Positions 1,524 through 55,152 of a DNA stretch of 64,000 nucleotides are shown piece by piece. The notes below the pieces were generated by a model that saw only the letters and a list, made by a program, of their open reading frames with translations, ran no database searches and had not been told where the DNA came from. Position numbers and translations under genes: made by a program. Numbering within the stretch: the first letter of the stretch is position 1; each line of letters opens with the position of its first letter. The stretch is from the NCBI GenBank assembly GCA_964532285.1, contig CAZHHB010000001.1, positions 77,916 to 141,915 of the forward strand, in the 5' to 3' direction. Origin of the DNA: an uncultured Candidatus Saccharibacteria bacterium (lineage in GTDB: Bacteria > Patescibacteriota > Minisyncoccia > Phycocordibacterales > PALSA-1337).

Positions 1524-1596
1524 GATTTGATCTTGATGGGCGTAACCCATCTTAACGCAAATTGGAAGAAACCCCAAACTGTTATAGAATGACTTG

Positions 1597-3084
1597 ATGA
1601 AGAAAACCGCCAACAATACTATTCCACAGGAAATAGTCACCGTTGTAGAAACTCTCGAAAAGGGCGGATTTCAGGCATATCTCGTAGGAGGATGTGTCCG
1701 AGACATATTCCTAGGCCGAACGCCCAAGGATTGGGACGCTACAACCAACGCAACGCCAGATCAGATACAGAAATTATTCCCCAAGACCGTGTACGAGAAT
1801 ACATTTGGCACAGTAATAGTCATAAATGAACAAACCGAAGACGAAACATTGAGAAATGTAGAGATAACTCCCTACCGAATGGAGTCTAGCTATTCAGATC
1901 GCCGTCATCCCGATCAAGTCAAATTTAGCGATAAGATTGAGGATGATCTAAAGAGACGAGATTTTACAATCAACGCCATCGCAATCAACCTCTCAAATGG
2001 CGCTATAAAGGACACAATTGACTTATACGGCGGTTTTACTGACATAAAGGACAAAACCATCAGAACTGTTGGTGACTCTGTTGAACGCTTCTCTGAGGAC
2101 GCCCTACGCATGATCCGCGCCATCAGATTGGCTGTGGAATTAGGTTTCACGTGCAACAAAGAGACCTTCGCAGCCATAAAAAACCACAATTCAATGATAA
2201 AGGATGTTTCTATGGAGAGAATTCGTGACGAATTTGTGAAAATACTCATGTCCCCTGCCCCAAAACAAGGGATTGAACTGCTCCAAGAATCAGGAATACT
2301 CAAGTTTATAGCCCCAGAATTGGAAAAAGGTATGGGTGTGAAACAGCCACAAGCTCACGCTTATGATGTCTGGGAACACCTATTGAGGAGTTTACAGCAT
2401 GCCGCAGACAAGGAATGGCCCCTAGAAATAAGGCTTTCTGCCCTATTTCATGATATCGCCAAGCCACAGACTAGGGGGTTTTCTATTGAAACAAAACAAC
2501 CTACCTTCTATGGGCACGAAGTCGTTGGTTCACGTGAAACACGCAAGATACTAGAAAGAATGAAGTTTTCACGTGCAACCATTGAAAAGGTGGTTAAAAT
2601 GGTCCGTTGGCACATGTTCTTCTCTGATACTGGCATTGTCACGCTGTCAGCGGTCAGACGCATGATTGTTAACGTTGGCAGGGAAAACATCTGGGATCTC
2701 ATGAACCTCAGGATATGTGACCGTATCGGTACAGGCAGACCCAAAGAGAATCCTTATCGCCTAAGGAAATACAAATCGATGGTAGAGGAAGCTCTTCGAG
2801 ATCCGATCTCGGTATTAATGTTAAAGATTGATGGAAAGAAGATTATGGAAATAGGGAATATCCCCGCTGGCCCTAAAATTGGAATGGTCTTAAATGCTCT
2901 AATGGAAGAAGTTCTGGATGACACAAAACTAAATACTGAAGAATACCTATCCAGGAGAACCTTGGAGTTGCTAGCTCTGCCTGAGATGGAATTGGCTACA
3001 TTAGCAAGAAAAGGTAAGGAGAAAAAGGATCTTGAAGAGGAGAAGGGTATTGAAGAAATCAGAAACAAACACCATGTTTCATAA
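1597..3084 (+). CDS. cca: CCA-adding enzyme / tRNA nucleotidyltransferase with HD domain and C-terminal extension
   Basis: Contains the motifs GGCVRD..LG, DWD and RRDFTINA of the polymerase-beta nucleotidyltransferase head, followed by the HD motif LFHDIAKP. The ATG at 1597 follows an in-frame TTG at 1594. Confidence 0.8.
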   Translation: MKKTANNTIPQEIVTVVETLEKGGFQAYLVGGCVRDIFLGRTPKDWDATTNATPDQIQKLFPKTVYENTFGTVIVINEQTEDETLRNVEITPYRMESSYSDRRHPDQVKFSDKIEDDLKRRDFTINAIAINLSNGAIKDTIDLYGGFTDIKDKTIRTVGDSVERFSEDALRMIRAIRLAVELGFTCNKETFAAIKNHNSMIKDVSMERIRDEFVKILMSPAPKQGIELLQESGILKFIAPELEKGMGVKQPQAHAYDVWEHLLRSLQHAADKEWPLEIRLSALFHDIAKPQTRGFSIETKQPTFYGHEVVGSRETRKILERMKFSRATIEKVVKMVRWHMFFSDTGIVTLSAVRRMIVNVGRENIWDLMNLRICDRIGTGRPKENPYRLRKYKSMVEEALRDPISVLMLKIDGKKIMEIGNIPAGPKIGMVLNALMEEVLDDTKLNTEEYLSRRTLELLALPEMELATLARKGKEKKDLEEEKGIEEIRNKHHVS

Positions 3085-3122: not shown

Positions 3123-3229
3123 TATATAAACTAAAAGACATTACTATTAGAAAGTTATCCACAGTATGTCCTTTACATCATGTCCTATAAGACATAGAAT
3201 AGTTGCAGACCAGTTTGTCATCCGAGGTG

Positions 3230-3297
3230 ATTGCAGAATAATGTTCCTGAAAATATTTTCATAAAAATTATTTTATTCGGAAATATTATTCTGCAAT
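3230..3297. repeat. long imperfect hairpin in a convergent intergenic region
   Basis: The arms attgcagaataatgttcc and ggaaatattattctgcaat flank an AT-rich palindromic loop. Confidence 0.45.
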
Positions 3298-3643
3298 CGC
3301 GACAGACACAGTTCTTTCCACAACAGGGTAGGCTCAATGCTCCTCTAGTTCGTTGTTGAAGTAAGCGGAAATATTTTTTCCAATCCTTCCATTGCTTGGG
3401 AATAATGACGGTGCAACTTGTCTCAATCACATATCAGTTCTCCTCCGGAGAACAAATTAATTTTAGACAACAGTGCCCATCGTCACCCACCAAAGAAATA
3501 GGAATGGTCTGGATTGATCAGATTCGATCTTTGGATCTGACGGTTCGTTTGTTCTTTCATTTTCGCTCGACTTCGAAGGCCGCGGTATGTACTTCTTTCT
3601 GAATTACCTCTACGCGGTTTTTCTTTTACTTGAAATAAAGTAT

Positions 3644-5659: not shown

Positions 5660-5688
5660 TTGACAATTCCTGCAGGTATGCTAGGATA
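5660..5688 (+). promoter_or_regulatory. sigma70-like promoter, copy 1 of a duplicated promoter
   Basis: TTGACA, a 17-nt spacer ending aggtatgc, then TAGGAT. The other copy at 42219-42246 is almost identical (cttgacaa-N8-aggtatgcta). Confidence 0.5.
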
Positions 5689-5800
5689 CATGCAGAGTGA
5701 CCTATGAACAGTCTAGATTCGCCCGAAACCCCTGTGGGGATTAGGGGGATTAAGCGATAGGTCACATGGCAAAACAATGCAAAAACAAAGAAAGGCACAA

Positions 5801-5914: not shown

Positions 5915-6041
5915 CCCCGGCTTCTCCTGGCCCAGCCCATCACCCTAAGCAAACGAAAGCGTTTGCGGGGTGGTGGGCTTTAATCTATATTCAATGGCGA
6001 ATACTTGCGTCTGCGTATCATTCATGCTAATATACTAAATC

Positions 6042-6308
6042 ATGTTAACAGCCAGACAAAAGACCAAGATTATCAAGGAAACGGGTATTCACGACAAGGA
6101 TAGCGGCTCTCCGGAAGTCCAGGTCGCCCTTTTGACCAAGAAAATTGAGGAATTGACTGGTCATCTACGCAAACATCGCAAAGACAACCACTCTCGCCGT
6201 GGTTTACTCGGTATGGTTGCAGACAGACAGACTCATTTGAATTATCTCAAGAAAAACTATCCTAGACGCTATTCTGCTATAATAAAGAAGTTGGAACTCA
6301 AGAAGTAA
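6042..6308 (+). CDS. rpsO: 30S ribosomal protein S15
   Basis: 88 aa carrying the S15 signature ...[22 protein letters not shown]...L.YL. Confidence 0.9.
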
Positions 6309-6370
6309 TCTCGCACATTACAATTCAATCATTTTTAATAAATTAATCGGTACTTAACGTACTTATTTTC

Positions 6371-6892
6371 ATGTCAGTAATCAAACATCAAGAACAGCGT
6401 GTCGGTGTTTTCATAGACGCGCAAAACTTATATCATAGTGGGAAAAACCTATATCATTCCAAAGTAAATTTCGGTCAAATAGTAAAAGATGCCGTAGATG
6501 GACGCAAACTCGTCCGTGCTATCGCTTATGTTATATCTACAGAATCAGGTGAGGAAAGCGCCTTTTTCGACGCACTCACCAAGATGGGTATAGAAACCAA
6601 GGTCAAAGATCTGCAAATATTCAGTTCCGGCGCCAAAAAAGCGGATTGGGATGTTGGTATGGCTATAGATGCTGTACGCTTGGCTCCGAAATTGGATGCC
6701 ATCATTCTCCTCACTGGCGATGGTGACTTCGTACCACTGGTGGAATATCTACAGATGAATCTCGGGTGCCAGGTTGAAGTCGTATCATTCGGCAAGTCCA
6801 CTTCAGCGAAACTCATAGAAGCTACTGACCATTTCATGGACCTGGATGAGACACCTAATAAATATTTACTTAGATCGGGAGGGAAGAAGTAG
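6371..6892 (+). CDS. NYN/LabA-like (PIN-like) domain protein
   Basis: Contains VGVFIDAQNLYHS...AIAYV....LTGDGDF.PLVEYLQ, the NYN-domain acidic motifs. It is inserted between rpsO and pnp. Confidence 0.7.
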   Translation: MSVIKHQEQRVGVFIDAQNLYHSGKNLYHSKVNFGQIVKDAVDGRKLVRAIAYVISTESGEESAFFDALTKMGIETKVKDLQIFSSGAKKADWDVGMAIDAVRLAPKLDAIILLTGDGDFVPLVEYLQMNLGCQVEVVSFGKSTSAKLIEATDHFMDLDETPNKYLLRSGGKK

Positions 6893-7099
6893 GATAGTGA
6901 ATAGATCTGATCTTGGTATAAAATTTAAGTCTATGTTACTCTGACGGTATACCAAGATCGGATCTTGATATATTACAAACTAATTTCGCCTCCAGATAGG
7001 CAGGTTTGTCCGTCTACATCATTCAATGACGGATCAAGTCTGAAATCTGAGGGCGAAAACGGTTGACCAAGATCGGATCTTGGTCAAACCGAAAATATT
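6893..7099 (+). promoter_or_regulatory. pnp leader carrying three related palindromes (ccaagatcNgatcttgg)
   Basis: The perfect 25-nt palindrome ttgaccaagatcggatcttggtcaa lies at 7065-7089. Partial copies lie at about 6902-6918 and 6948-6968. Confidence 0.45.
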
Positions 7100-9241
7100 A
7101 TGAATAAAAAAGAATACTCTATTGAGGTCGGTGGCAAGACTTTGTCTGCTGAATTCAATGATCTCGCAGATCAAACCAATGGTTCTGTGATGGTTCGTTA
7201 TGGCAACACCATAGTCATGGCCACAGCCGTCATGAGTAAGGAATTAAAAGAAGGTGATTTTTTTCCATTAACAGTTGATTACGAGGAGCGTTTTTATGCT
7301 ACTGGGAAAATATTGGGCTCAAGATTTATGCGCAGGGAAGGACGACCGTCCACTGACGCCATCCTTTCTGGACGTATTGTGGATCGCACCATTCGCCCTT
7401 TATTCAATCAGAAAATGCGCAATGAAGTCCAAATAATATTGACCACTATCTCTGTGGATCAAGATGATCCTGATGTAGTCTCTGTCATTGCTGCGTCACT
7501 CGCTTTGGGAACTTCCGATATTCCATGGAATGGTCCTGTTTCTGCTGTACGCATGGCAAAAGATGGCCAATGGATCATCAATCCCAACTTCAAAGCTAGG
7601 GAAGAAGCGGGTATAAGCATGGAAATGGTCGCTTGCGGTAAAGATGGCATGATAAATATGATAGAGGTTGGTAGCAAAGAAATCAGCGAAGACACTATGA
7701 ACGAAGCTTTGTCTGAGGCTTCAAAAGAGATAGAGAAAATCCAGAAATGGCAATCAAAAATAATCGCGGAAATAGGTAAGAAAAAAGTAAAAGTGGAAAT
7801 AGCAGAACCTACTCCTGGGACACAAGAACTTTTCGATAAAGAAATAAAGCCGAAACTTGCAAAATATATCATGAGCAACACTCCTGGTCACAAGAGTATC
7901 AATGAAATATCAAAAATGTGGACGGATTTATTCGTAGAGAAATTCCCAGAAGGTAATGTCTTGCTTGCTATGGAAATCTTTGAAGACGCAGTGAATGAGC
8001 TCTTACATAGTGAAGCTATAGACAACGATAAGCGTGCCGATGGCCGAACAATGGATGAGATCCGCCCCCTATTCGCCAAAGCTGGTGGAATATCACCGAT
8101 ATTGCACGGCTCAGGAACTTTCTACAGAGGAGGAACTCATATTCTATCCGTCTTAACTCTTGGAAGTCCCGGTGATGCTCAGGTTATAGATGCTTTGATC
8201 GTCCAAGAAGACAAGAGATTCATGCATCATTACAATTTTCCACCATTCTCTACCGGCGAGACCGGTCGTGTAGGCAATACAAACAGGAGGATGATAGGTC
8301 ATGGAGCTTTGGCGGAAAAAGCCCTGCTTCCAGTCATTCCGGAAAAAGCAAAATTCCCATACACTATCCGCCTAGTATCTGAAGCGATGGCCTCCAACGG
8401 TTCAACTTCTATGGGTTCCGTCTGTGGTTCAACCATAGCTCTAATGGACGGAGGTGTCCCCATCAAAGCCCCTGTCGCAGGTATTGCTTCTGGTCTCATG
8501 ATGCGTAGTCCAAAAGAATACAAAGTCCTCACCGACATCCAAGGTCCAGAAGATCATCATGGCGATATGGATTTCAAAGTGGCCGGTACCCGCGAAGGCA
8601 TAACAGCTGTTCAAATGGATGTGAAAGTTGGCGGAATACCACTCAAAATATTGGCCGAGGCTTTCGAAAAAGCCAAGTCAGCCCGTTTCCGCATCTTGGA
8701 TGTTATAGAGAAAGAGATACCGAAGCCACGAGCAAATATTTCTCCTAGTGCTCCCGAGATAATAATGATGAGTATCAAGCCTGATCAGATAGGTCTCGTC
8801 ATCGGTAGTGGAGGAAAGACGATAAATGAAATCCGCGATGTCACAGGAGTGGATGATATCACAATAGAAGATGATGGATCCATCTTCATCACAGGCAAAG
8901 AGGGTAGTGCAGCCAAAGCCAAGGAAATTATCTTCAATATGACACGAGAATATCTGCCGGGAGAGAAATTTGAAGGTGAAGTAGTTCGCCTCATGGACTT
9001 TGGAGCCTTCGTGAAGATTGGTCCGAACGCTGAAGGACTTGTTCATGTCTCCGAGATAGCACCATTCCGTGTAGAAAGAGTTGAGACTTATCTGAAAGAA
9101 GGGGACAAAGTTCCTGTGGCGGTAAAAGAAATAGATGATAAGGGCAGGATCAATCTTTCTATTAAGAATGCCAAACCTGACTTTTTCACAAAGAAGGAAG
9201 AAACTCCAAAACCTAGGACGGAATTCAAGAAGAGGTTTTAG
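7100..9241 (+). CDS. pnp: polynucleotide phosphorylase
   Basis: 713 aa with two RNase PH domains and KH and S1 tails. Typical motifs are GRxxDE.R.L and FGAFV.I. Confidence 0.9.
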   Translation: MNKKEYSIEVGGKTLSAEFNDLADQTNGSVMVRYGNTIVMATAVMSKELKEGDFFPLTVDYEERFYATGKILGSRFMRREGRPSTDAILSGRIVDRTIRPLFNQKMRNEVQIILTTISVDQDDPDVVSVIAASLALGTSDIPWNGPVSAVRMAKDGQWIINPNFKAREEAGISMEMVACGKDGMINMIEVGSKEISEDTMNEALSEASKEIEKIQKWQSKIIAEIGKKKVKVEIAEPTPGTQELFDKEIKPKLAKYIMSNTPGHKSINEISKMWTDLFVEKFPEGNVLLAMEIFEDAVNELLHSEAIDNDKRADGRTMDEIRPLFAKAGGISPILHGSGTFYRGGTHILSVLTLGSPGDAQVIDALIVQEDKRFMHHYNFPPFSTGETGRVGNTNRRMIGHGALAEKALLPVIPEKAKFPYTIRLVSEAMASNGSTSMGSVCGSTIALMDGGVPIKAPVAGIASGLMMRSPKEYKVLTDIQGPEDHHGDMDFKVAGTREGITAVQMDVKVGGIPLKILAEAFEKAKSARFRILDVIEKEIPKPRANISPSAPEIIMMSIKPDQIGLVIGSGGKTINEIRDVTGVDDITIEDDGSIFITGKEGSAAKAKEIIFNMTREYLPGEKFEGEVVRLMDFGAFVKIGPNAEGLVHVSEIAPFRVERVETYLKEGDKVPVAVKEIDDKGRINLSIKNAKPDFFTKKEETPKPRTEFKKRF

Positions 9242-16940: not shown

Positions 16941-17096
16941 GCAAATATGTTTTTGTGACAGTCTGCGGTACTCGCTCCGTGAAATTGCTAGGTAAAAGGC
17001 TCAGGAATTGTAAACAATTCCAACGACATTCGCCTTTTACCAAGCAATTTCCACTGCGCTCAGACATGTCCTCGACTGTCACAAAAACATATTTGC
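16941..17096. repeat. structured repeat element, copy 1: 23-bp perfect outer inverted repeat around a 111-bp conserved core
   Basis: The outer arms gcaaatatgtttttgtgacagtc and gactgtcacaaaaacatatttgc are exact reverse complements. The core at 16964-17074 matches 37530-37640 at 110 of 111 positions. The core folds as a long stem (gaaattgctaggtaaaaggc / gccttttaccaagcaatttc) around the hairpin ggaattgtaaacaattcc. Confidence 0.7.
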
Positions 17097-20017: not shown

Positions 20018-21895
20018 ATGAGACGATATATCAAACACATTCCAATGATATCACTGCTAATCCTCATCGGATTGGTATTATTCGCACATCCGGCGTTGGC
20101 ACAGAAAGTTCCAGGTGCGGGGAATGATACTGGGTGGGTTGGAGCTCTCTTCGGATTCGATACGGCGTGGGATTTCCTGTCTTACGGGGTGGCATGGATA
20201 GTCAATCTGTGGCTGACGGTAGCCTCATGGTTTGTGGCTCTGACTGGTATTTTACTGAATGTCTCTATCAACATAACTCTGCATATCAAAGATTTCGTAG
20301 ACAGTACACCGGCAATATATGATGTCTGGAGAGCATTACGTGATATCTCCGGTATATTCATAATATTTGCCTTACTCTGGGCGGCCATCCAACTCATCCT
20401 TGGGATAACCAAGCCGAACTTTGGAGGCCTGATAAAAAATATCGTCATCGCTGGAGTACTGATAAATTTCAGTTTCTTCGTAACGGGGATTCTAATAGAT
20501 GCCTCAAATGTTGTATCGCTCACTATCTACAATGCCATATTGCCAAATGCCGCCGCACAATATAACGGCAATACCACAAAGCTTGTTGAGGAATCTTCAA
20601 CTAGTAACAGGGCAAATATTTCCGATATATTCATGGGTTCACTGAAACTTCAGAAGAGCTTTGATACGAAGAACTTAAATATGGGGCAAGCGGCAGGTGG
20701 CGTAAGTGCTCCATTCAAAATAATCCTTTCAGGTTTAACGGGCGTCATCATTATGATTACTGCCGGCTTGAGTTTCTTATTTGCTTCACTGGCTTTCATT
20801 GTGCGACTTGTGCTTCTGCTGGGAATCTTGGCTTTTTCACCTCTATGGTGCGTGGCGTATGTAGTTCCTCAGCTGAGCAAATATAGCACCAAGCTCGCAG
20901 ACACTTTCAAAGGTCAGCTTATGTTCATGCCAGCATATCTGCTCCTCATGTATATTGCCTTGAAGATACTTGATGGTACAAAAGTCTTCAGTAGTCCTGC
21001 TACGGGCAATCTGTGGCAAGGCGCACAAACTACTGGTGTACCAACGGAGTTTATAACTTTCGCCATCAACGCTGCTTTCGTAATCATTATGCTGAATATT
21101 CCATTACTCGCGGCATTAGAGTTGATGGGGAATACTGCATTATGGAAGGGTGTCGGGGCTGGGGCGATATGGAAGGGTGTTGGAAATTGGACAAAGGACC
21201 GCGCATGGAGAGAAACTGGTGGCAGAGCGGCTAGTAAGGTTGCTACGAGCGAGAAATTCAAGGATCTCGCGAGCCGTTATAAGGTCGCAGAATTTGCATT
21301 GAAAGAGACTAGGGGTGTAGCGAAGGGTTATGATGAGAAGTTAGATAAACAGGTTAAATCAAAGACGGAATTCTCTGAATCTCTTGGTCATGATCAGAGA
21401 GCGATGAATGCGGCACAAGCTAGACTAAGGACAGCACAAAGTAACCTAGCTTCCGCAAAAGCTGCTGGTGCTGCGCCAGGTGTCATAACTAATCTCGAAA
21501 ATCAAGTTGGTGCAGCGAAGGGGGGTATAACTACTGTTGAGAATGCACGGAAGCAGTCTTATGCGACAAGAATTGGTACGCGTGGGATTACTGATGTTGA
21601 TACATTGTGGCTGAAGGTAGCTCGTAAGAACAAAGTAGCAGCAGCCAAAGTTCAGATACCTATTCTAGAAAAGCAAATTACTCAAAGAAAGGAAAGTCTA
21701 AAGGAAACAAGAGACGATATTAAACAGCTTACGAATGCTATCAGAAATAATCCTGCTGGAGCTGGGGTGGCTGCCGGAGCACCAACAGCTGCTCAAGCTA
21801 CGCAATTAGCTCAACTCCAAAGAGATGAGGTTAATAAACTTAATACCATTAATGGTCTTGAAGCAAGCATTGACACTCTTAAACTCATAAAATAA
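20018..21895 (+). CDS. TrbL/VirB6-like polytopic membrane protein with a C-terminal coiled-coil tail
   Basis: N-terminal signal/TM segment, at least six hydrophobic helices with the spacing seen in TrbL/VirB6, and an Ala/Gln-rich coiled-coil C-terminus. Confidence 0.5.
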   Translation: MRRYIKHIPMISLLILIGLVLFAHPALAQKVPGAGNDTGWVGALFGFDTAWDFLSYGVAWIVNLWLTVASWFVALTGILLNVSINITLHIKDFVDSTPAIYDVWRALRDISGIFIIFALLWAAIQLILGITKPNFGGLIKNIVIAGVLINFSFFVTGILIDASNVVSLTIYNAILPNAAAQYNGNTTKLVEESSTSNRANISDIFMGSLKLQKSFDTKNLNMGQAAGGVSAPFKIILSGLTGVIIMITAGLSFLFASLAFIVRLVLLLGILAFSPLWCVAYVVPQLSKYSTKLADTFKGQLMFMPAYLLLMYIALKILDGTKVFSSPATGNLWQGAQTTGVPTEFITFAINAAFVIIMLNIPLLAALELMGNTALWKGVGAGAIWKGVGNWTKDRAWRETGGRAASKVATSEKFKDLASRYKVAEFALKETRGVAKGYDEKLDKQVKSKTEFSESLGHDQRAMNAAQARLRTAQSNLASAKAAGAAPGVITNLENQVGAAKGGITTVENARKQSYATRIGTRGITDVDTLWLKVARKNKVAAAKVQIPILEKQITQRKESLKETRDDIKQLTNAIRNNPAGAGVAAGAPTAAQATQLAQLQRDEVNKLNTINGLEASIDTLKLIK

Positions 21896-22830
21896 TGAAC
21901 CACGACTACAACATACTTGAAGAAAAATTTAAACAACTACCTGAAGATATTCAGATAGCTTTAACTTCCACGGAGATATCTAAAGAGATAAAAAACATCG
22001 CCGACAAGAATAACCTTCTCCTAGACCAAGCCGCCATATTATTTGATCTTACAAGTTATGTAATGTTGGGGCTTGTACCTTCAAAAGAATTCGCGAGCAC
22101 TCTCTCCAAAGAAGCAAACATTGATATGGGAAAAGCTATCGCTGTCACCCAAGAAATCAACACTCAAGTTTTCGCCAAGATCCGATCTTCAATGCAAAAC
22201 CTTCAAAGTACTCGTGAAAATGTAGAAACTGAAACGGCGATACCAAATTCATCACCTATCCCAGAAAAGATGCGACCTTCTTCTGGAATAACCCAACAAC
22301 CAACACCACGACCAGTATCTACACCCTGGACACAGAAGCCGACACAGGGACCAGTGCAACCAGATCATTCAGACCTAGAGAAAGCGGGAGATTTCACGAT
22401 TGTATCGAGTGGAGATAATTTCTCTGTACCTCCACCCACACAACAAAGACAAACATTTACACCTGCACCGAAGCCATACATCCCAACGAATCCTTCTATT
22501 ACACCGAAGCCCGCTTACACACCAATACAAACACCGATTGTTCCGAAACCAATAATTCAGACGCCAAAGATGCAACCAACACCTCAAAGTGTACCGCAAC
22601 CATTCGTTCCAAAAACACCAGACGCAACAACCACAACACCAATTAAACCAGAAACAAAGACGGAACCGTTGGCAGATCATTTACTCAACAGTTTCAAGCC
22701 AGTCATACCGAATATTCCACAAAACAAACCCACACAGAACGTTCCGCCGCAAAATATTCCAACCGGTACACCAACACCGAATGTGCCTCCGAAACCACGA
22801 GGACCTGATATGTATAGAGAAATGGTATAA
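21895..22830 (+). CDS. Pro/Thr-rich hypothetical protein
   Basis: Low-complexity PT/PK-rich C-terminal half. The start overlaps the upstream stop. Confidence 0.35.
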   Translation: MNHDYNILEEKFKQLPEDIQIALTSTEISKEIKNIADKNNLLLDQAAILFDLTSYVMLGLVPSKEFASTLSKEANIDMGKAIAVTQEINTQVFAKIRSSMQNLQSTRENVETETAIPNSSPIPEKMRPSSGITQQPTPRPVSTPWTQKPTQGPVQPDHSDLEKAGDFTIVSSGDNFSVPPPTQQRQTFTPAPKPYIPTNPSITPKPAYTPIQTPIVPKPIIQTPKMQPTPQSVPQPFVPKTPDATTTTPIKPETKTEPLADHLLNSFKPVIPNIPQNKPTQNVPPQNIPTGTPTPNVPPKPRGPDMYREMV

Positions 22831-37500: not shown

Positions 37501-37670
37501 CAAGGCGAATAATAGTTCCTCTCGCCAGCCTGCGGTACTCGCTCCGTGAAATTGCTAGGTAAAAGGCTCAGGAATTGTAAACAATTCCAACGACATTCGC
37601 CTTTTACCAAGCAATTTCTACTGCGCTCAGACATGTCCTCGGCTGTTTCGAGGAACTATTATTCGCCTTG
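37501..37670. repeat. structured repeat element, copy 2: 21-bp perfect outer inverted repeat around the same 111-bp core
   Basis: The outer arms caaggcgaataatagttcctc and gaggaactattattcgccttg are exact reverse complements. The core at 37530-37640 matches copy 1 with one mismatch. It lies just downstream of ruvC. Confidence 0.7.
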
Positions 37671-42747: not shown

Positions 42748-43236
42748 ATGAAAATTCACACATCACATTCACTGGAAGAAACACAAAAGATCGCCGCCGA
42801 ATGGCTGGTGAGTATTATCCAAGATCCGATCTTGGACAAGAAAGAAGCAACCGTCGTTGGCCTGTCTGGTCACCTCGGAGCTGGGAAGACGGCTTTTGTA
42901 AAAGCGGTGGCGAAGGAACTCGGAATTACAGGGGAGGTTACGAGTCCGACTTTTGTGCTGATGAAGATATATAGTATCGAGGTGAGGCCTAGTAGGCCTA
43001 ACCTACAAGGCCCAACCTACAAGGTCTCGCCTTGGACAAGACTGATTCACATCGACGCATACCGCCTAGAAAAAAGGGAAGAGTTACAAGCTTTGGACTT
43101 TGAGAATATTGTTTCGGATCCTGGTAATCTGGTGATGATAGAATGGCCGGAAAATGTGGATTTGAATGAGTTTGAGAAAAATTGTCACCTGAAGTTTGAG
43201 ATAAGGGATGGGGTTTATGAGATCAAGATTGATTAG
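42748..43236 (+). CDS. tsaE: tRNA threonylcarbamoyladenosine biosynthesis protein TsaE, carrying a ~17-aa in-frame insertion
   Basis: GLSGHLGAGKT P-loop, SPTFVL, and HIDAYRL. The insertion VRPSRPNLQGPTYKVSP is encoded by a GC-rich palindromic and repeated stretch. Confidence 0.75.
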   Translation: MKIHTSHSLEETQKIAAEWLVSIIQDPILDKKEATVVGLSGHLGAGKTAFVKAVAKELGITGEVTSPTFVLMKIYSIEVRPSRPNLQGPTYKVSPWTRLIHIDAYRLEKREELQALDFENIVSDPGNLVMIEWPENVDLNEFEKNCHLKFEIRDGVYEIKID

Positions 43237-48705: not shown

Positions 48706-48900
48706 ACGTTTTCAATTCTAAAGAAAGATTACTCCATGCCAGATTATTGTCAATTTATGCATCAACTTACAAAAAGGTGATTGCACAAAGCGTATTTTGT
48801 GATAATCTGTCAATTATCCTCTAGATTTGTTTATTGCGCCCATAGAAGGTTGGCGAAAGGTTAGTCGTTCCTTAAATTTAAAAACATTCTTTAAATATAT

Positions 48901-48973
48901 GCGCCCATAGCTCAGGTGGTAGAGCAACTCCCTTTTAAGGAGTGGGTCGTTGGTTCGAATCCAACTGGGCGCA
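48901..48973 (+). tRNA. tRNA-Lys (anticodon TTT)
   Basis: Acceptor GCGCCCA/TGGGCGC, D-arm TAGCTCAGGTGGTAGAGCA, anticodon stem ACTCC/GGAGT with loop CTTTTAA, T-arm GTTGG-TTCGAAT-CCAAC. Confidence 0.85.
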
Positions 48974-50551
48974 CCCTTCGCTAGATTTTATAAACATGTT
49001 GGAACATATAGGTTTCTTCGTATTTTGGCTTTTTTGTGATACGTGTTCGAGCTTCAAAAGTTGGTCAAAAAGTAGGGAGGGATTTGATTTTATTATAAGT
49101 CCGTCGGAAACTTGGAAATTATCCCAAAAGAATGCCAGGTATTGTCGTTTGAGGTCTGGCGAAGCTTTTATGTAGGCATCGTAAATATTTCTAGTGAGAT
49201 TTAGAATCTCCTGAGCGATATCCATATTCACATTCTTTTGTTTCTCAAGTTCAAACAGCCTGTCATCTATCCTTTGGATTTCTTGGTCTATCTCGGTCTT
49301 CACTCTAGTGAAATCATCATCGGAGATTATATTGGCAAATAGTTTTTCTTCAGCCACCTTTCTCTTTATTTCGTATGCAGTTCGTTGATTGACGCATTCT
49401 TTCCTCTTGATTTCATATGTTTTGCGTCGTTCATAAAATATAGCTTTTGCTTTGCCGATTACCTTATCAATAAACACCTGACTGAATTCTATCGTCTTGA
49501 ATTTCTCTGCGACCATATCTTCAAGCCTCCAAGTCTCAATGTACTTGCCACAACCAGATGGGCGAGAGCAGTGATAGTACGCCTTACTTTTGTTCAAGTG
49601 CCATTCGGCGGAGTAACGACATTCGTGGGTATAACAACGGACGAATCCGCTTAAGAGCCAAGAATATCGTCTCCTACGACAAGCATGCTTATTTTTTGCC
49701 ATCATCACTTTCTGCACTTGATCGAAAAGTTCCTTACTGATAAGAGGTTCATGTTTTCCATCTTTGTTGTGTACATCACTCCAGTGTACTTCACCAATGA
49801 AGAACCTATTTTTTAAGGTGTTATAGAGCTGGGCATCAGACCGTTTACCACCATGCTTTGTTTGTAGTCCTTTCTCAAACATAATGTCGTTTAGTTCGTA
49901 GACATTATAATTACCTGTCGCGTACAGTTTGAACGCTTCCTTAACAAGCGGTCCGTCATGTGGGTCAATGATTATGCTTTTCTGACCAAAGCGCCCAATG
50001 GATAAATTGGGAGTACTAACGTTTTTGTAACCGACTGGAGCCATGCAAGGGTAGTAGCCCGCTTTAGCTTTTTCTTTCATTGTCATGATGACTTTTTCGG
50101 ATGTTATATCCCTGTGGAATTGGTTCATTGATGCCATGACAGTACTGACCATTTTGGAAGTAGCCGAATCATCCATGTCTGGTTGTTGAATACACTTAAC
50201 TAATACTCCATTTTTACGAAACAAATCCATAAGATTTAGGTGGTCTAGGGTATTGCGAGCCAGTCGGTCGCTGTGAACGACATAGATAGCATTGATGGAC
50301 TTTGCCAAGACGAGTTTTATTACCTGCTGAATCCCAGGTCTTTTCAAGGTACCAGCGCTTTTGCCTTCGTCCTTGATAACTTCTAGGATTGAATACCCGT
50401 CTTTTGTGGCGTCTTCGATGCAGATATTCTCCTGTGATTCAATAGAGAGTCCTGTACTTGCTTGGTCATCAGTACTCACACGGCAATAAATGACGGCAAC
50501 CTTTTTGCCCAATTCGGGCATCGTATAATTTTGTGATTGTGAGTTTGTCAT
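48935..50551 (-). CDS. large serine recombinase (integrase type)
   Basis: Resolvase domain (VAVIYCRVSTDDQ with a catalytic Ser), a recombinase domain, and a Cys-rich zinc-ribbon with a coiled-coil C-terminus. The 3' end of the ORF runs about 39 nt into the tRNA-Lys 3' half. Confidence 0.8.
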   Translation of the reverse strand: MTNSQSQNYTMPELGKKVAVIYCRVSTDDQASTGLSIESQENICIEDATKDGYSILEVIKDEGKSAGTLKRPGIQQVIKLVLAKSINAIYVVHSDRLARNTLDHLNLMDLFRKNGVLVKCIQQPDMDDSATSKMVSTVMASMNQFHRDITSEKVIMTMKEKAKAGYYPCMAPVGYKNVSTPNLSIGRFGQKSIIIDPHDGPLVKEAFKLYATGNYNVYELNDIMFEKGLQTKHGGKRSDAQLYNTLKNRFFIGEVHWSDVHNKDGKHEPLISKELFDQVQKVMMAKNKHACRRRRYSWLLSGFVRCYTHECRYSAEWHLNKSKAYYHCSRPSGCGKYIETWRLEDMVAEKFKTIEFSQVFIDKVIGKAKAIFYERRKTYEIKRKECVNQRTAYEIKRKVAEEKLFANIISDDDFTRVKTEIDQEIQRIDDRLFELEKQKNVNMDIAQEILNLTRNIYDAYIKASPDLKRQYLAFFWDNFQVSDGLIIKSNPSLLFDQLLKLEHVSQKSQNTKKPICSNMFIKSSEGCAQLDSNQRPTP

Positions 50552-50749
50552 AGTAGTAGTTTGATTATTTTTTTATTTTATAAACTTGCGCAGAATAAAC
50601 AACCGGAGTTATACACACTAATTACAACTATTAAGAGCTTGCGATTAATGAGTGATTTGGGATTTTAGATAACAATTATTTATTTAATTTCTTATAGGTT
50701 AGTTATTGTACTAAGATGCTTTATAGCTCACTCTAAAGATTCTTTATGG

Positions 50750-51151
50750 TCACCATAAATTAGGTGGCATACTCCTCGGTTTCTTCTTTTCATTCTTGGC
50801 TGTATTTATAATCTTATCCACATACTTCCATCGATCTATTGCTTCTGGTCCCAAATTCAAGCACACTCTTCCGTTGCGGTAACTTTGCACAATAAGTTCA
50901 TCGCGTTTCAATCGTTTCAGAGCCTTGAAGACGGTTACTGATGATGTCCGCGCAATCTTTGCCATTAACTCCTTACTGGCGTAGCAGTACAGTCCTTTTC
51001 GATGGAATGAGCAAACAAGAGAAAGAACAACAACTTCAATCGGGTTCAGATTAAAATATGACGATACACCGCAGTAGACGAGGTAGTACATTTCTTCAAT
51101 GTTCGCCTGATAACCTGTTGTTGGAGTTTGGTTTTCCATTTTTTTGCTCAT
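50750..51151 (-). CDS. winged-helix protein resembling the RepA N-terminal domain
   Basis: ..YASKELMAKIARTSSVTVFKALKRLKRDELI, a helix-turn-helix/winged-helix pattern. Confidence 0.3.
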   Translation of the reverse strand: MSKKMENQTPTTGYQANIEEMYYLVYCGVSSYFNLNPIEVVVLSLVCSFHRKGLYCYASKELMAKIARTSSVTVFKALKRLKRDELIVQSYRNGRVCLNLGPEAIDRWKYVDKIINTAKNEKKKPRSMPPNLW

Positions 51152-51384
51152 TTTGATTTGTAATCTTTTGATCGACCTGTTCAATGAAAATAGACGCCAA
51201 CATTTCTGTTGCTTCATCAATTATTTTTTGATTAATATCTGCGTCTTTCATTGTAAAGACAATCAAACCACGAAGAAAATGAATTTGCCCTTATGAAATA
51301 TTTTTTTGTTTGCATGACAAAAATATCCTTATTTTATAAGGATTAAATTACGATATCTGAAAAATTATCCCAGATATATCCCAC

Positions 51385-52215
51385 TCAGACCTGTATGTAA
51401 TATAAAAATAATTTAAAACCAGACCCCATTTTTTTGATTTCAATAGGCATTCTCTTTTTTGCTATTGATTTTCGCATATCTCTTATAATCTGAAATACTT
51501 CTCTTCGCCAAAAATCGATCACCGCGCCGCTGTAATCTTTACCAATAGAGTTTGCTAAAAAGCTGACACTTACAATGCCACCATTTTTATAAATTCGACC
51601 ACTTGCTTTATCTTTGACCTCTCGTTCCCTCCATAATTTTTGAAAAAATTCTTTACGTCTATTTTCATGAAATGAGATGGCTTTATTCCCAAAACTAAGA
51701 ACACCTCGTTCAAAATTAAATCTTGGTCTCGTTACTCCTTGTTTGTAAGAATGTACAAGTTTTTTTAACTTGCCAAGTCTTTGTAGATTGATTTCAATCT
51801 TGGCACATTGTAATTCAATAGAAATGTGCGGATTGTCGTTATCTATTCGTGTGTAATAATGCAATGATAAAAATACACACTCTTTTAATAAATATCCAAG
51901 AAATTGCTTTATCACTATGTGTTCAAAATATCTTAACTGCGAATCGGTATCACCATCATCAATTATGCGATCAATATCAATATTTATGATTTTTGAACGG
52001 GTCCGTCTTTTTCTGAGCTCTATAGCTTTTTGATAGATTAATTCTGAATAGTAGAGAAAATCCTTTTTTGCCCCAACTCTAACATGTTCAATTTGTTCAA
52101 GAGTAGGTGGTTCTAAACTCGTAATTCCATATTCTTTTTCAGCAAGTTTTAGAGACTCAAGAATAGAGAAGTCTTTAATTTTCGATGGCGATAATTTTTT
52201 AGTTACTTTTTTCAT
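51385..52215 (-). CDS. hypothetical protein (possible replication protein of the element)
   Basis: No motif recognised. It sits next to the iteron-like region. Confidence 0.25.
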   Translation of the reverse strand: MKKVTKKLSPSKIKDFSILESLKLAEKEYGITSLEPPTLEQIEHVRVGAKKDFLYYSELIYQKAIELRKRRTRSKIINIDIDRIIDDGDTDSQLRYFEHIVIKQFLGYLLKECVFLSLHYYTRIDNDNPHISIELQCAKIEINLQRLGKLKKLVHSYKQGVTRPRFNFERGVLSFGNKAISFHENRRKEFFQKLWREREVKDKASGRIYKNGGIVSVSFLANSIGKDYSGAVIDFWRREVFQIIRDMRKSIAKKRMPIEIKKMGSGFKLFLYYIQV

Positions 52216-52682
52216 AGAATACCCCAGTACTTAACAGCTGTTCCTTTGCGTAAAACTAAGTTATAACACATTCAAATCGGCTTTTGTATAGGTAACACCA
52301 AGTTTGTATGTTTTCCATAGAATATCCATAGTTTTCTAATAACTCGTCTTACCCGACATATATCATAGCTCTATCATAGGTCTTTCCAGTAACATTCATG
52401 GTTTTTCTATCTTTAAATCTTAGGTTTTCTAAGGTTCTCTAAGTTATTCACAAATAATCATTTGGTGCTATGATACGGATACAACTGAATATCGTGAAAG
52501 TAGCCTAAACTAGTAAGTAATTATTAGCATGGCAAAAAATCCCATGGAAGATACTGAACCCCACGTTCAGCGCTCTTCCATGGGTTATACCGGGAAACTG
52601 GTATAGAAGCCGTAAGGCTTTGCTGGCGTGGGGCTTAGTGTTTATACACTGACCCCCTACCATAAACTGTGGGTCTTTTTGC
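52216..52682. repeat. iteron-like direct repeats and a nested hairpin (candidate element origin)
   Basis: Repeated ccatagaata / catag units and ttctaaggttctctaag. A hairpin cccatggaaga..(ctgaac cccacg ttcag)..tcttccatggg lies at 52541-52585. Confidence 0.35.
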
Positions 52683-53234
52683 ATGGATAAGAAACAACTA
52701 CAAACAGAAAAGGAAAGTTTTGCTGAAGACGAGGTTTTGTTTTCGGTATTTCAAGGTGCACTTAACCGAGGTTATCCATATCTTGTCTATGAGAAAAACA
52801 CTGATGTAGAGAGAAGGGGAGACTTTAAGATCTACTTGTCAAAATTATTGAGAAAATATCAAGGACTTGTAATACAAAGTCCCGATAAAAATACGGACAT
52901 TATTTCGGATTTTCAAGTAGAGATAAATAGGTCTGAGTTCACTGATATTCTAAAGAAACAGACGATAACATTTGGGCGAGTCCAAAAACTTCTTAATCTG
53001 TATTTGAAGTACCATTGGATTTTTAATTGTGATGAAGACAATTTCGAACCGCCACATTGTCCAATCGATTCTATAATTCTTGGGGAAATAGGATGGGTCG
53101 GTCCTTCATGGGCAAATCCAAGATTCGGTAAAAGCGAATACGATAAAGCTATCGAGAAATGTAAGACGAAAGCCCATGGCGTGAAAATCGCAGAATGGGA
53201 GCTCGTAACATTTAATAATCGAACAAAGGAATAA
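52683..53234 (+). CDS. hypothetical protein
   Basis: 183 aa, no family recognised. Confidence 0.3.
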   Translation: MDKKQLQTEKESFAEDEVLFSVFQGALNRGYPYLVYEKNTDVERRGDFKIYLSKLLRKYQGLVIQSPDKNTDIISDFQVEINRSEFTDILKKQTITFGRVQKLLNLYLKYHWIFNCDEDNFEPPHCPIDSIILGEIGWVGPSWANPRFGKSEYDKAIEKCKTKAHGVKIAEWELVTFNNRTKE

Positions 53235-53350
53235 ATTATGAGTAATTTCTTATCCACACAAAAATCTAGGTTTATTTATTTAACAGCAGTATTTAATATA
53301 AGCAAGTATGTATAACTTCTCTTGAAAATTAATAAATATAAAAAGCTAAC

Positions 53351-54205
53351 ATGAAAATAAGATACACTTTAGTTACATTCGTAATCGCCACACTGATAAT
53401 TCCTAACATAGTTTTTGCTGTGTGGTGGAATCCTCTCTCGTGGTTTAGGAAATCGGTACCAGTATCACAATTATTCTCCTCTACAACTCAACCTACTGTT
53501 GAGGAACTACTGAAAAAGGTCGAGACACTACAGAAACAGATCGATGAGAAAGGTCCTCAACTCAGCCAAACTGTAGAAATTCCCGAAGTGATTAAGAATG
53601 AGCCTAAACAAATAATTAAGACTAGCGTTACATCTAATGATAACAGTCAGTTAAAGAAGGAGTTAGAAGGACTTAGAAATAAAGTAGCCAAAGAAGAGGC
53701 GTGTCGTAGTGCAGATAGTATCTTGAAAGAAGCCCACGATGTTTATGATTCTGGGGTCAGAAGAATAACTAGTGAATATGCTTCGATCAATGAATTGGTT
53801 TCTATAATAGCCAGCACATCACAAGAATATAAAATTATGAGTGAAGATTACAACCTCTTATGTCCAGTACCTACAAGAGAGAACATAATCACCTACTGCA
53901 TGAATTGGAATAGTCATTTGACATATCACAATCATACCCGTGACTATTCTTTGTCAGATGACCCTGAAACTAGAAAAAATCGTATATTTACTTGTGGAAT
54001 AAATGCTAAAGATTTGAACGGTATTATTGTTAGTAGAGCTGATTGGCAGAATAACATTGATAATTTGATAACAACATGGACAAAAGAGTGTGGAAGAATG
54101 AATAAAAACTTTTCAGCTGAATATATTACGCTCCAGAAGAATTACAACCGCTTGTTAGAGCTACAAAAAGAATATGATATTCAAGCTAAATTGTGCAAGC
54201 AGTAA
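53351..54205 (+). CDS. secreted hypothetical protein
   Basis: Signal peptide, several Cys residues and a coiled-coil segment. Confidence 0.35.
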   Translation: MKIRYTLVTFVIATLIIPNIVFAVWWNPLSWFRKSVPVSQLFSSTTQPTVEELLKKVETLQKQIDEKGPQLSQTVEIPEVIKNEPKQIIKTSVTSNDNSQLKKELEGLRNKVAKEEACRSADSILKEAHDVYDSGVRRITSEYASINELVSIIASTSQEYKIMSEDYNLLCPVPTRENIITYCMNWNSHLTYHNHTRDYSLSDDPETRKNRIFTCGINAKDLNGIIVSRADWQNNIDNLITTWTKECGRMNKNFSAEYITLQKNYNRLLELQKEYDIQAKLCKQ

Positions 54206-54223
54206 TATAAGTAACTTATCCAA

Positions 54224-54436
54224 ATGAATACAATACAAAAAATCTTAATACTAGCTAGCATAATACTGACTCTGTCAGCTTCAGTCAGTCTAATTTACTA
54301 TTTTGTCGCAAGACCTATACAACAAGATATACGACTTGATGAATGTCTTGATTCAATGTGGGCTCTTTATGGTAATCAAGACGATTTATATAAGGAGAAA
54401 GTAAATCTTTGCATTAAGGAGATTAAGGGGAATTAA
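54224..54436 (+). CDS. small membrane protein
   Basis: 70 aa with one TM helix. Confidence 0.3.
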   Translation: MNTIQKILILASIILTLSASVSLIYYFVARPIQQDIRLDECLDSMWALYGNQDDLYKEKVNLCIKEIKGN

Positions 54437-54447
54437 ATAATATAAAC

Positions 54448-55152
54448 ATGCGCCTCTGGACTTACATAAAATCCCTGAATAAAAGGCTGATAATTACTGC
54501 AATTGCTTTGTTGGGGTTTATTTCGTTACTTGTCTATTTGGAAAACACACCAAGGATTATGGAATATAAGAACGATGTTGTTCAGGAAAAGAAATCGTAT
54601 ACAGACGAAGATGTAAAACAAATAATGGAGAGAATAGCCAAACTTTCGGCGATCGATTACGACTTCATCTGTCCAGAAAAATATACGGATTCTAAAACTT
54701 ATATTGACGATACAGCGAAGTTTACAAGAAATTATCTTGATATATACCCCGATGCGACAAAAGACGATATATTATATTTTCGTAGTAGTCTCCTGGTAAA
54801 ATATAATTGCTCGGGCTCTTCTTATGGGATAGCGAGGGATAATTCCGCAGAACTTAATCTAAGCGGAAAGGTTGTGTCATTTATGACTTACGGACGAATT
54901 ATAGTAGAGAACCATGTCTCCGATTCGTCGTCATTCGTGTATTTTATTGCAGAACCGACTGATGTAATTACCGATAGTGTCTTCAGATATAGTCCAACGA
55001 CCTTTAGACTAGACGAGGGAGATACTGTTAAGGTCATTGGGAAGGTGATAGACGAATGCTACTGGAATGATGAAGATTATGGTGGTTGCGTGCCTCTGGT
55101 GGAAATAAGAGACTTGCAAAAAGTACAAAGCGACGATATCACCCGTATTTAA
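54448..55152 (+). CDS. membrane-anchored hypothetical protein
   Basis: N-terminal TM helix. No family recognised. Confidence 0.3.
   Translation: MRLWTYIKSLNKRLIITAIALLGFISLLVYLENTPRIMEYKNDVVQEKKSYTDEDVKQIMERIAKLSAIDYDFICPEKYTDSKTYIDDTAKFTRNYLDIYPDATKDDILYFRSSLLVKYNCSGSSYGIARDNSAELNLSGKVVSFMTYGRIIVENHVSDSSSFVYFIAEPTDVITDSVFRYSPTTFRLDEGDTVKVIGKVIDECYWNDEDYGGCVPLVEIRDLQKVQSDDITRI

Follow-up and report, generated by a model that had tools for sequence, protein, structure and literature searches.

The window analysed here is a stretch of 64,000 nucleotides from an uncultured Candidatus Saccharibacteria bacterium, a tiny groundwater-type member of the Patescibacteria (contig CAZHHB010000001.1, positions 77,916–141,915), and this study concerns its rpsO–NYN–pnp locus, where the genes for ribosomal protein S15 (rpsO), a NYN-domain protein and polynucleotide phosphorylase (PNPase, encoded by pnp) follow one another. 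On balance, the locus probably combines three separate things: a NYN gene that is a partner of the S15 gene, a pnp unit with a regulatory leader hairpin, designated H2, and a set of palindromes that fill slots around this hairpin. The chief interest of the locus lies in the H2 motif and in the NYN gene locked beside rpsO, and not in the proposal of an earlier sequence-only reading that the NYN protein acts on the palindromes. The Patescibacteria (Candidate Phyla Radiation, CPR) are bacteria with very small genomes, and to our knowledge hardly any work has been done on how they metabolise RNA.

All genes of the locus lie on the forward strand. The rpsO gene (6042–6308; Pfam PF00312, E 1e-30) is followed by the gene for a LabA-like NYN-domain protein of 173 aa belonging to the NYN.COG1432 group (6371–6892), a spacer of 207 nt (6893–7099), whose extent had been given correctly by the sequence-only reading, and pnp (7100–9241), encoding a PNPase of 713 aa with two RNase_PH domains, a KH domain and an S1 domain in Pfam. 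The spacer sequence is identical in two independent assemblies (Logan ERR3094292 and ENA ERZ27247828), which excludes an assembly artefact. Folding of the leader had been proposed as a check: the predicted RNA structure of the spacer is far more stable than that of shuffled sequences (z = -7.3) and comprises three hairpins, H1, H2 and H3.

For comparison, 80 species-level loci with 70–91% NYN identity were gathered via the NYN protein, upstream sequence being present in 78 of them. They include the closest reference species (L001, 91%; loci are referred to by L numbers) and were supplemented by the four closest relatives (94–95% NYN identity) and by five further loci picked through PNPase instead of NYN.

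A conserved hairpin in the pnp leader

H2 (6984–7058, + strand) consists of a helix P1, an invariant internal loop and a variable helix P2. The consensus of 24 leaders reads P1, 5' GAU-A-N-R-CAG, variable P2, CUG-AA-AUC 3' and P1', and throughout this alignment the internal loop and its closing pairs are invariant, within a near-continuous helix of about 28–30 bp. RNAalifold revealed compensatory changes in 12 of 17 pairs. In a structure of 20 pairs, 90.8% of the cells are paired, compared with 26–47% when the 3' partners are slid along the alignment; double changes were found in 16 of these 20 pairs (55 cells), and the observed values were reached by none of 500 shuffles.

A covariance model of the motif (R1) was searched against both strands of 919 kb, comprising the window and the 80 loci. 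On the sense strand it matched the window and 26 loci, solely immediately 5' of pnp, while its antisense matches were weaker and fell in the same places as the sense ones. The model also matches L192–L197 and L200–L202, and the hairpin accompanies pnp where other genes part pnp from the NYN gene. Judged by its covariation and its consistent pnp context, H2 is a structured cis-regulatory RNA. The sequence-only reading had suggested post-transcriptional control of PNPase through the palindromes; its notion of a structured leader that is very likely a control element holds, while the element predicted to carry the control is H2, which it did not mention, and not the palindromes. No leader match was obtained in an Rfam scan of the whole window at gathering scores, which returned solely three tRNAs and a LOOT RNA, and with Rfam 15 at permissive thresholds the region 6890–7110 gave sub-threshold microRNA and small nucleolar RNA noise of at most 17 bits.

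It is quite unlikely, although it deserves consideration, that H2 is a small-molecule riboswitch or a site for another protein, such as S15 or S1, controlling pnp translation. A small invariant loop, covarying helices and a variable distal stem are typical of small riboswitches and ribosomal-protein leaders, and rpsO lies close by. However, H2 is tied to one gene family, that of an RNase, and not to metabolic or transport genes, the 3' arm of P1 carries no consistent Shine-Dalgarno-like sequence, and the motif bears no resemblance to the riboswitches in Rfam or to the S15 leader. Sequestration of the Shine-Dalgarno sequence by the 3' arm of P1 was rejected as a general mechanism, since this arm is G-rich or C-rich depending on the leader, and neither an alternative pairing nor consistent Shine-Dalgarno sequestration was found among the H2 leaders. 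The internal loop was also compared by eye with a K-turn, a loop E and an S15 site, none of which fits the consensus.

The elements around H2 follow a common order. An extended -10 sequence, TGTTACTCT, at 6934–6942 (+) and a -35-like TTGGTA at 6913–6918 (+), the latter overlapped by the first palindrome copy, probably form a promoter of pnp. Of 25 leaders, 17 carry a TGnTAnnnT box 31–52 nt 5' of H2, in many cases accompanied by TTGTCA at a distance of 17 nt on its 5' side, and the element at 6913–6942 is described as a probable sigma-70 promoter of the form TTGnnA-17/18-TGnTAnnnT. In read-through transcripts the extended -10 sequence would lie in the loop of H1, an 18-bp hairpin in which the first palindrome copy (6903–6920) is paired with 6948–6965. 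The second copy (6948–6972, +) constitutes P0, a hairpin with which the pnp mRNA is predicted to begin. Some small hairpin is always found in the P0 slot, with sequences that are unrelated between species. P0 is connected to H2 by a single-stranded linker, ATATTACAAACTAA (6970–6983, +), which matches the conserved CAYWTTAWYAA.

Downstream of H2, the third palindrome copy forms the hairpin H3 (7059–7091, +), ending 8 nt before the ATG. H3 is present in 13–14 of 23 leaders, with unrelated sequence and very variable size, and is missing in about 40%. The distance from H2 to the AUG ranges from 7 to 91 nt, yet the predicted unpaired stretch before the AUG keeps to 4–16 nt (median 9; 8 nt in the window) and is A-rich and without a Shine-Dalgarno sequence. 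This constancy indicates that H3 behaves as a tolerated insertion, one that leaves a structured block directly beside the start codon. No terminator-like site was found on the + strand of the spacer, and neither H1 nor H3 is succeeded by a U run; classical terminators are present 3' of the NYN gene in L198 and L199.

The NYN gene as a partner of rpsO

The assignment of the gene between rpsO and pnp to a NYN/LabA-like family with a predicted RNase fold is borne out, with the same coordinates. The protein matches PF01936 with 126.8 bits against a cut-off of 24.2, its residues 10–159 covering profile positions 1–145 of 145, and it can be aligned to the structural-genomics entry PDB 2qip (E 1e-26) with D16, D92, D94, D100, D117 and D119 all identical. 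It is therefore predicted from its sequence to be a metal-dependent endoribonuclease. Acidic residues of a PIN-like active site are part of the family description, while the NYN.COG1432 group has no biochemically characterised member and no demonstrated nuclease function (PMC5499597).

Homologues of this protein number thousands; the best 120 clusters are 85–100% identical, and all named members among them belong to Patescibacteria/Paceibacterota. Among NYN, S15, PNPase and Xer, the NYN protein shows the highest conservation: it surpasses S15 in 68 of 77 loci, PNPase in 39 of 39 and Xer in 60 of 61; in the nearest homologue it is 95% identical, compared with 84% for PNPase. A protein more conserved than S15 and locked beside rpsO across the class is, as far as sequence conservation goes, a strong candidate for a core ribonuclease. 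No report of a link between this NYN subfamily and rpsO was found in the literature, and PMC5499597 does not mention one. Nothing relevant was retrieved from the literature on NYN proteins of Patescibacteria, on RNA motifs of pnp in Parcubacteria or on the ribonucleases of the CPR.

The position of the gene was compared among relatives. The sequence-only reading had described it as inserted into the rpsO–pnp operon, a description that does not hold, for rpsO is directly 5' of NYN in all 78 assessable loci. Absence of the NYN gene at this position in close relatives, which would have spoken against the idea, was not observed either, the gene standing beside rpsO throughout. The gap between the two genes varies from -1 to 480 nt (median 104), and its length of 16 nt or less in four loci suggests translational coupling.

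The relation to pnp is much looser. In 20 loci pnp lies within 450 nt 3' of NYN, in 22 the two are 0.6–3.6 kb apart, with unrelated genes in between that are often on the opposite strand (TerC/DUF475, ORF6N, Bro-N, PIF1 helicase and HTH proteins), and in at least 29 it is not found within at least 3 kb. A homologue of orf525, which lies 3' of pnp in the window, directly follows NYN in many of the pnp-less loci, including L001. The order rpsO–NYN–pnp is nevertheless conserved in relatives, as had been asked of it: NYN is between rpsO and pnp in the window and in every relative with pnp at the locus. All five loci picked through PNPase have the arrangement cca | exoIII xerC | rpsO NYN (0–1 small ORF, open reading frame) pnp orf5xx dksA-like, and the four closest relatives share the same gene frame, from which it follows that rpsO–NYN–pnp is the ancestral order of this clade. 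The NYN–pnp junction is thus a breakpoint, pnp is dispensable at the locus and the rpsO–NYN pair is invariant. Since NYN stays with rpsO when pnp is separated or absent, it is tied to rpsO and not to pnp.

The NYN gene also has upstream signals of its own. A motif in its 5' untranslated region (UTR), CATTTTTAATAA (6330–6341, +), is preceded by a -10-like TACAAT at 6319–6324. In 43 of 80 loci the 75 nt preceding the ATG of NYN contain the sequence ATTTT(T)AATA/ATAA, about 134-fold over background, and most of the longer rpsO–NYN spacers contain a TGnTATAAT-type box, usually 5' of the (C)ATTTT(T)AATAA motif. The form CATTTT(T)AATAA is similar to the linker consensus CAYWTTAWYAA between P0 and H2, and this likeness may reflect a common cis element or an A/T-rich coincidence.

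Upstream of rpsO, in the region 6026–6042 (+), an extended -10 sequence, TGCTAATAT, can be read that ends about 7 nt before the ATG, and from this position the rpsO mRNA appears to be leaderless. Extended -10 boxes (TGCTAnAnT) with their ends about 6–8 nt before the start codon were also noted for pnp in many relatives (L010, L013, L026, L034, L053, L057, L065 and L066), and together with that of rpsO they suggest that leaderless mRNAs are frequent in the lineage. Further upstream, the region 5660–5800 / 5925–5978 contains a strong sigma-70-like promoter (TTGACA-16-TAGGAT, with TG) followed by the hairpin GTGACCTAT...ATAGGTCAC and, before rpsO, a G+C-rich hairpin; this region, without a convincing ORF or an Rfam match, may encode a small RNA.

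Palindromes in the spacer and elsewhere

The most conspicuous feature of the spacer is a perfect palindrome of 25 nt, TTGACCAAGATCgGATCTTGGTCAA, at 7063–7087 (+). The sequence-only reading was right about its perfection and placed its end 10 nt before the pnp ATG; the actual distance is 12 nt, or 8 nt when counted from the hairpin. Of the three copies that had been reported, this is the third in order; the second (6948–6972, +) is near-perfect, with one mismatch in the 17-nt core, and the first is only a half copy, AGATCTGATCTTGGTATA (6903–6920, also 6900–6916, +), in which the left arm matches at 5 of 8 positions and the right arm is intact.

The palindrome is not confined to the spacer. Four matches to the 17-mer with up to two mismatches were found in the 64-kb window, where 0.03 are expected. 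The exact core recurs at 42819–42835, a copy overlooked in the sequence-only reading, within a palindrome at 42815–42839 that spans codons 23–31 of tsaE and agrees with 7063–7087 at 22 of 25 positions on the minus strand. A weaker copy that had likewise been missed, CCAAGATCCGATCTTCA (22175–22191, two mismatches), lies inside the ORF 21895–22830, and a related palindrome, CGAGATCCGATCTCG (2797–2811), lies inside a gene of the CCA-adding enzyme / poly(A) polymerase family (1594–3084). The window thus holds six copies, three in the pnp spacer and three inside coding sequence. A link to GATC avoidance or methylation was considered and dropped, GATC not being depleted (269 sites observed, 238–307 expected).

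The family was then followed through the relatives. In the nearest ones H2 is present and the CCAAGATC palindromes are absent from the leaders; L193 has GTGCT...AGCAC as its P0 and no H3, and L195 and L196 have other, longer H3 hairpins. Across the 919 kb, palindromes with an RTC-S-GAY apex are the dominant class of odd palindromes that are not part of tRNA genes, the commonest odd palindrome in the loci (apex TTGGCAA) having proved to be the anticodon arm of tRNA-Gly. Strong RTC-S-GAY members occur in the pnp spacers of the window, L002, L025, L031 (twice, once in the apex of P2 of H2) and L201. Others lie between convergent genes, namely in L012 at 2238 and 2310 (rsmE/tig) and in L025 at 1781 (cca/exoIII), where the sequence TATACCGAGATCCGATCTCGGTA is close to the second copy of the window. 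In L012 two tandem palindromes of the GGAGGTCGGACCTCC type, at 2028 and 2053, are in-frame inside rsmE. This tandem pair (2028–2073) is inside the ORF 1428–2222, encoding the 16S rRNA methyltransferase RsmE (PF04452), just before the IGPEGGWSPDE motif.

The RTC-S-GAY palindrome of L025 stands at the position orthologous to 3229–3298 of the window, where the long spacer separating the convergent cca-type and exoIII genes contains a 23-nt inverted repeat (GATTGCAGAATAATGTTCCTGAA / TTCGGAAATATTATTCTGCAATC).

Copies share a core within a genome and differ between genomes, and their outer arms vary and stay complementary, as in the four copies of L012. Such arms point to selection for a hairpin, in RNA or single-stranded DNA, and not for a half-site in duplex DNA. 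The palindromes are a lineage-specific dispersed hairpin repeat, recent and strain-specific, and not a pnp-specific signal. The sequence-only reading had itself named a generic repeat as the finding that would undermine it, and the palindrome largely proves to be one, because it is absent from the nearest leaders and present in coding genes and between convergent genes.

These distributions bear on three other explanations. That the NYN nuclease recognises and cleaves the palindromic hairpins of the leader as an additional control of PNPase, as the sequence-only reading had imagined, is highly improbable. The idea can draw on the intact predicted active site, on the ancestral gene order, in which NYN is flanked by rpsO and pnp, on the over-representation of RTC-S-GAY palindromes in pnp spacers (three in the window, with those of L002, L025, L031 and L201) and on the similarity of an A/U-rich motif in the NYN 5' UTR to one in the pnp linker. 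Nothing, however, connects the protein with the hairpins: rpsO keeps NYN in the 29 or more species without a nearby pnp and in the 22 with unrelated genes in between, the leaders of the closest relatives lack the palindromes despite a 94–95% identical NYN, hairpin sequences vary between species in which NYN is 70–95% conserved, and these palindromes are also found elsewhere, both within coding regions and at the ends of genes.

It is also improbable that the palindromes are DNA operators through which a dimeric transcription factor represses the pnp promoter, with tsaE as another target. They are perfect or near-perfect dyads of 17–25 bp, their positions would suit operators, with the first copy over the -35 sequence, the second at +1 and the third downstream so that looping is possible, and the exact core is found again 36 kb away. 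Three of the six window copies are nevertheless inside coding sequences, and L012 has two in-frame in rsmE and two between convergent genes. In addition, arms vary with compensatory changes so that half-sites are not conserved, orthologous promoters of the nearest relatives are without the sites, and no candidate regulator gene is located nearby.

The palindromes may, thirdly, be neutral, as selfish miniature mobile palindromes or products of template switching that survive at any site able to tolerate a hairpin, a proposal that is compatible with slot filling and denies the copies any role. This is possible, if somewhat doubtful. It is in keeping with their likeness within a genome and difference between genomes, with their strain specificity, with the copies inside coding regions and with the dispensability of H3 in about 40% of leaders. 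On the other hand, leaders with and without H3 keep a similar unpaired distance to the AUG, and P0 is always a hairpin of some kind, which indicates that the slots are structurally constrained even if their sequences are not.

A metagenome-wide scan with CCAAGATCSGATCTTGG gave 108 matches in unrelated organisms (GC 0.20–0.71), none of them accompanied by NYN, pnp, rpsO or other genes of the window; this number is about that expected by chance, and the scan is therefore uninformative on the copy number in the source genome. Among the matched sequences, the unrelated metagenome contigs L094, L102, L118, L123, L139 and L158, with about 21% GC, carry the CCAAGATCSGATCTTGG core in a tandem or dispersed repeat with a spacing of 95 nt.

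Other repeats and RNA elements were noted in the window. Near-identical long hairpins of about 120 nt, with arms GAAATTGCTAGGTAAAAGGC / GCCTTTTACCAAGCAATTTC, are located between convergent genes at 16963–17080 and 37530–37647, the former with an extra outer inverted repeat; both are below the Rfam gathering score, and the pair may represent a repeated terminator, a small RNA or an element of the kind known as miniature inverted-repeat transposable elements (MITE-like). The LOOT RNA (RF03000; 52502–52621, +) reaches 98 bits, where the gathering score is 46. It lies in a low-GC island at about 50000–58000 (35% GC, about 42% elsewhere) beside a tRNA-Lys gene (48900–48976), and this island looks like an integrated element.

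Proposed mechanism and comparison with known systems

In the reading preferred here, NYN would be a housekeeping partner of rpsO in Patescibacteria of the Paceibacteria type and not a pnp-specific regulator. It is most likely a Mg2+-dependent endoribonuclease for the processing of rRNA, tRNA or mRNA in general, and would be co-expressed with S15 and, in most species, also from its own promoter and 5' UTR. Transcription of pnp would result both from its own promoter, starting near 6949, and from read-through. The pnp unit is then predicted to comprise, in order, the promoter, P0, an A/U-rich linker, H2, an optional H3, 4–16 unpaired nucleotides without a Shine-Dalgarno sequence and the AUG.

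Within this unit P0 may protect the 5' end, and H2 would be the regulatory core, serving autogenous or RNase-dependent post-transcriptional control by analogy with the leader of pnp in E. coli. The helix and loop of H2 would be bound or cut by a protein, in all probability PNPase, with RNase III as a possible helper, and this would set the stability of the mRNA or the access of ribosomes beside the start codon. H3 presumably serves merely to maintain a structured block next to the AUG, and the 18-bp duplex of H1 is a possible processing site in read-through transcripts. The palindromes of this genome would fill the sequence-tolerant slots P0 and H3 and the site just after the NYN stop codon, supplying stable stems and not a specific recognition sequence. 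Conspicuous perfect palindromes can, on this account, be recent slot fillers, the functional element being the plainer imperfect hairpin between them.

Several points weigh against this picture. Roughly 40% of the pnp genes sampled among relatives lack H2, and the control of PNPase therefore does not require it. In these genes the promoter is of the leaderless type, with TGCTACAnT placed about 7 nt 5' of the ATG, or the leader is a different one. In the Kaiserbacteria-like L067, L077 and L079, H2 is replaced by another conserved leader about 100 nt 5' of pnp, ...CTCAATTTTTGATT...AATCAGGAATTGAG...GACTCACWRCGGGGCAGGTCCG..., which perhaps represents another leader motif of pnp, independent of H2. 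The promoter, the start of transcription and every protein partner named here are inferences, and a search for signatures of RNases III, Y, J and E and of Rho in the 64-kb window found none, the window being too small for this to be informative. As for the palindromes, alignment of tsaE with the single orthologue at hand shows a gap of just 3 aa, too short for the copy to be a clean insertion, and an in-frame insertion into tsaE is accordingly unproven. Moreover, pnp spacers are favoured, holding 7 of about 13 of the strongest palindromes of the family; this excess may go beyond the tolerance of a long UTR and hence reflect a pnp-related role of the hairpins.

A bolder version can be formulated, unlikely as it is, in which rpsO–NYN–(pnp) is a minimal RNA-processing module of the Paceibacteria. 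The ultra-conserved NYN protein would be an essential endoribonuclease coupled to S15 and possibly replacing lost RNases, H2 would be a new RNase-sensing leader or riboswitch tuning PNPase, and the RTC-S-GAY palindromes would be the standard 3'-end or processing hairpins, sampled by the pnp leader in order to match the supply of PNPase to the demand.

The components of the locus may be compared with several known systems. Like REP/BIME sequences and the Rickettsia palindromic elements, which insert in-frame into genes, the palindromes are short hairpin repeats of which a genome has several copies, located in UTRs, at the ends of genes and occasionally in-frame within them, with copies that resemble each other within a genome. 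They differ in being much shorter, (near-)perfect dyads of 15–37 nt with an RTC-S-GAY apex and a low known copy number. A GTAG head is absent from the copies, and no RAYT-type transposase was noticed beside them, the neighbourhood not having been searched systematically.

The NYN protein is similar to the LabA-like protein of known structure (2qip, VPA0982) in its single domain of about 170 aa, its full-length Pfam match and the retention of the acidic residues, and is distinguished by its subfamily being fixed beside rpsO. H2 is comparable with the autoregulatory 5' UTRs of RNase genes (rne hp2) and with ribosomal-protein leaders as a structured UTR of a single gene, with a conserved loop and a position near the start, but it belongs to another family of sequence and structure without a match in Rfam.

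The closest parallel is the rpsO–pnp unit of E. coli and Streptomyces, where the pnp leader is cleaved by RNase III and autoregulated by PNPase. In E. coli, as in the window, the S15 gene is upstream of the PNPase gene, and the two share a spacer hairpin, a pnp-proximal promoter (a predicted one in the window) and, within the 5' UTR of pnp, a hairpin that is long and imperfect; the computed fold of the E. coli spacer shows a terminator hairpin and a long imperfect hairpin, then pnp. By analogy, post-transcriptional autocontrol of an RNase would also be expected here. The differences are the conserved NYN gene between rpsO and pnp, the sequence-invariant internal loop and the lack of a Shine-Dalgarno sequence. 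With filters off, the best match of R1 in the rpsO–pnp region of E. coli MG1655 scored 8.9 bits and fell inside the pnp coding sequence; the leaders are not homologous. With a covarying pnp leader that has no match in Rfam, autoregulation of RNases would reach further than its proteobacterial and actinobacterial models. The locus works like a classical rpsO–pnp unit, yet it is not a member of that family.

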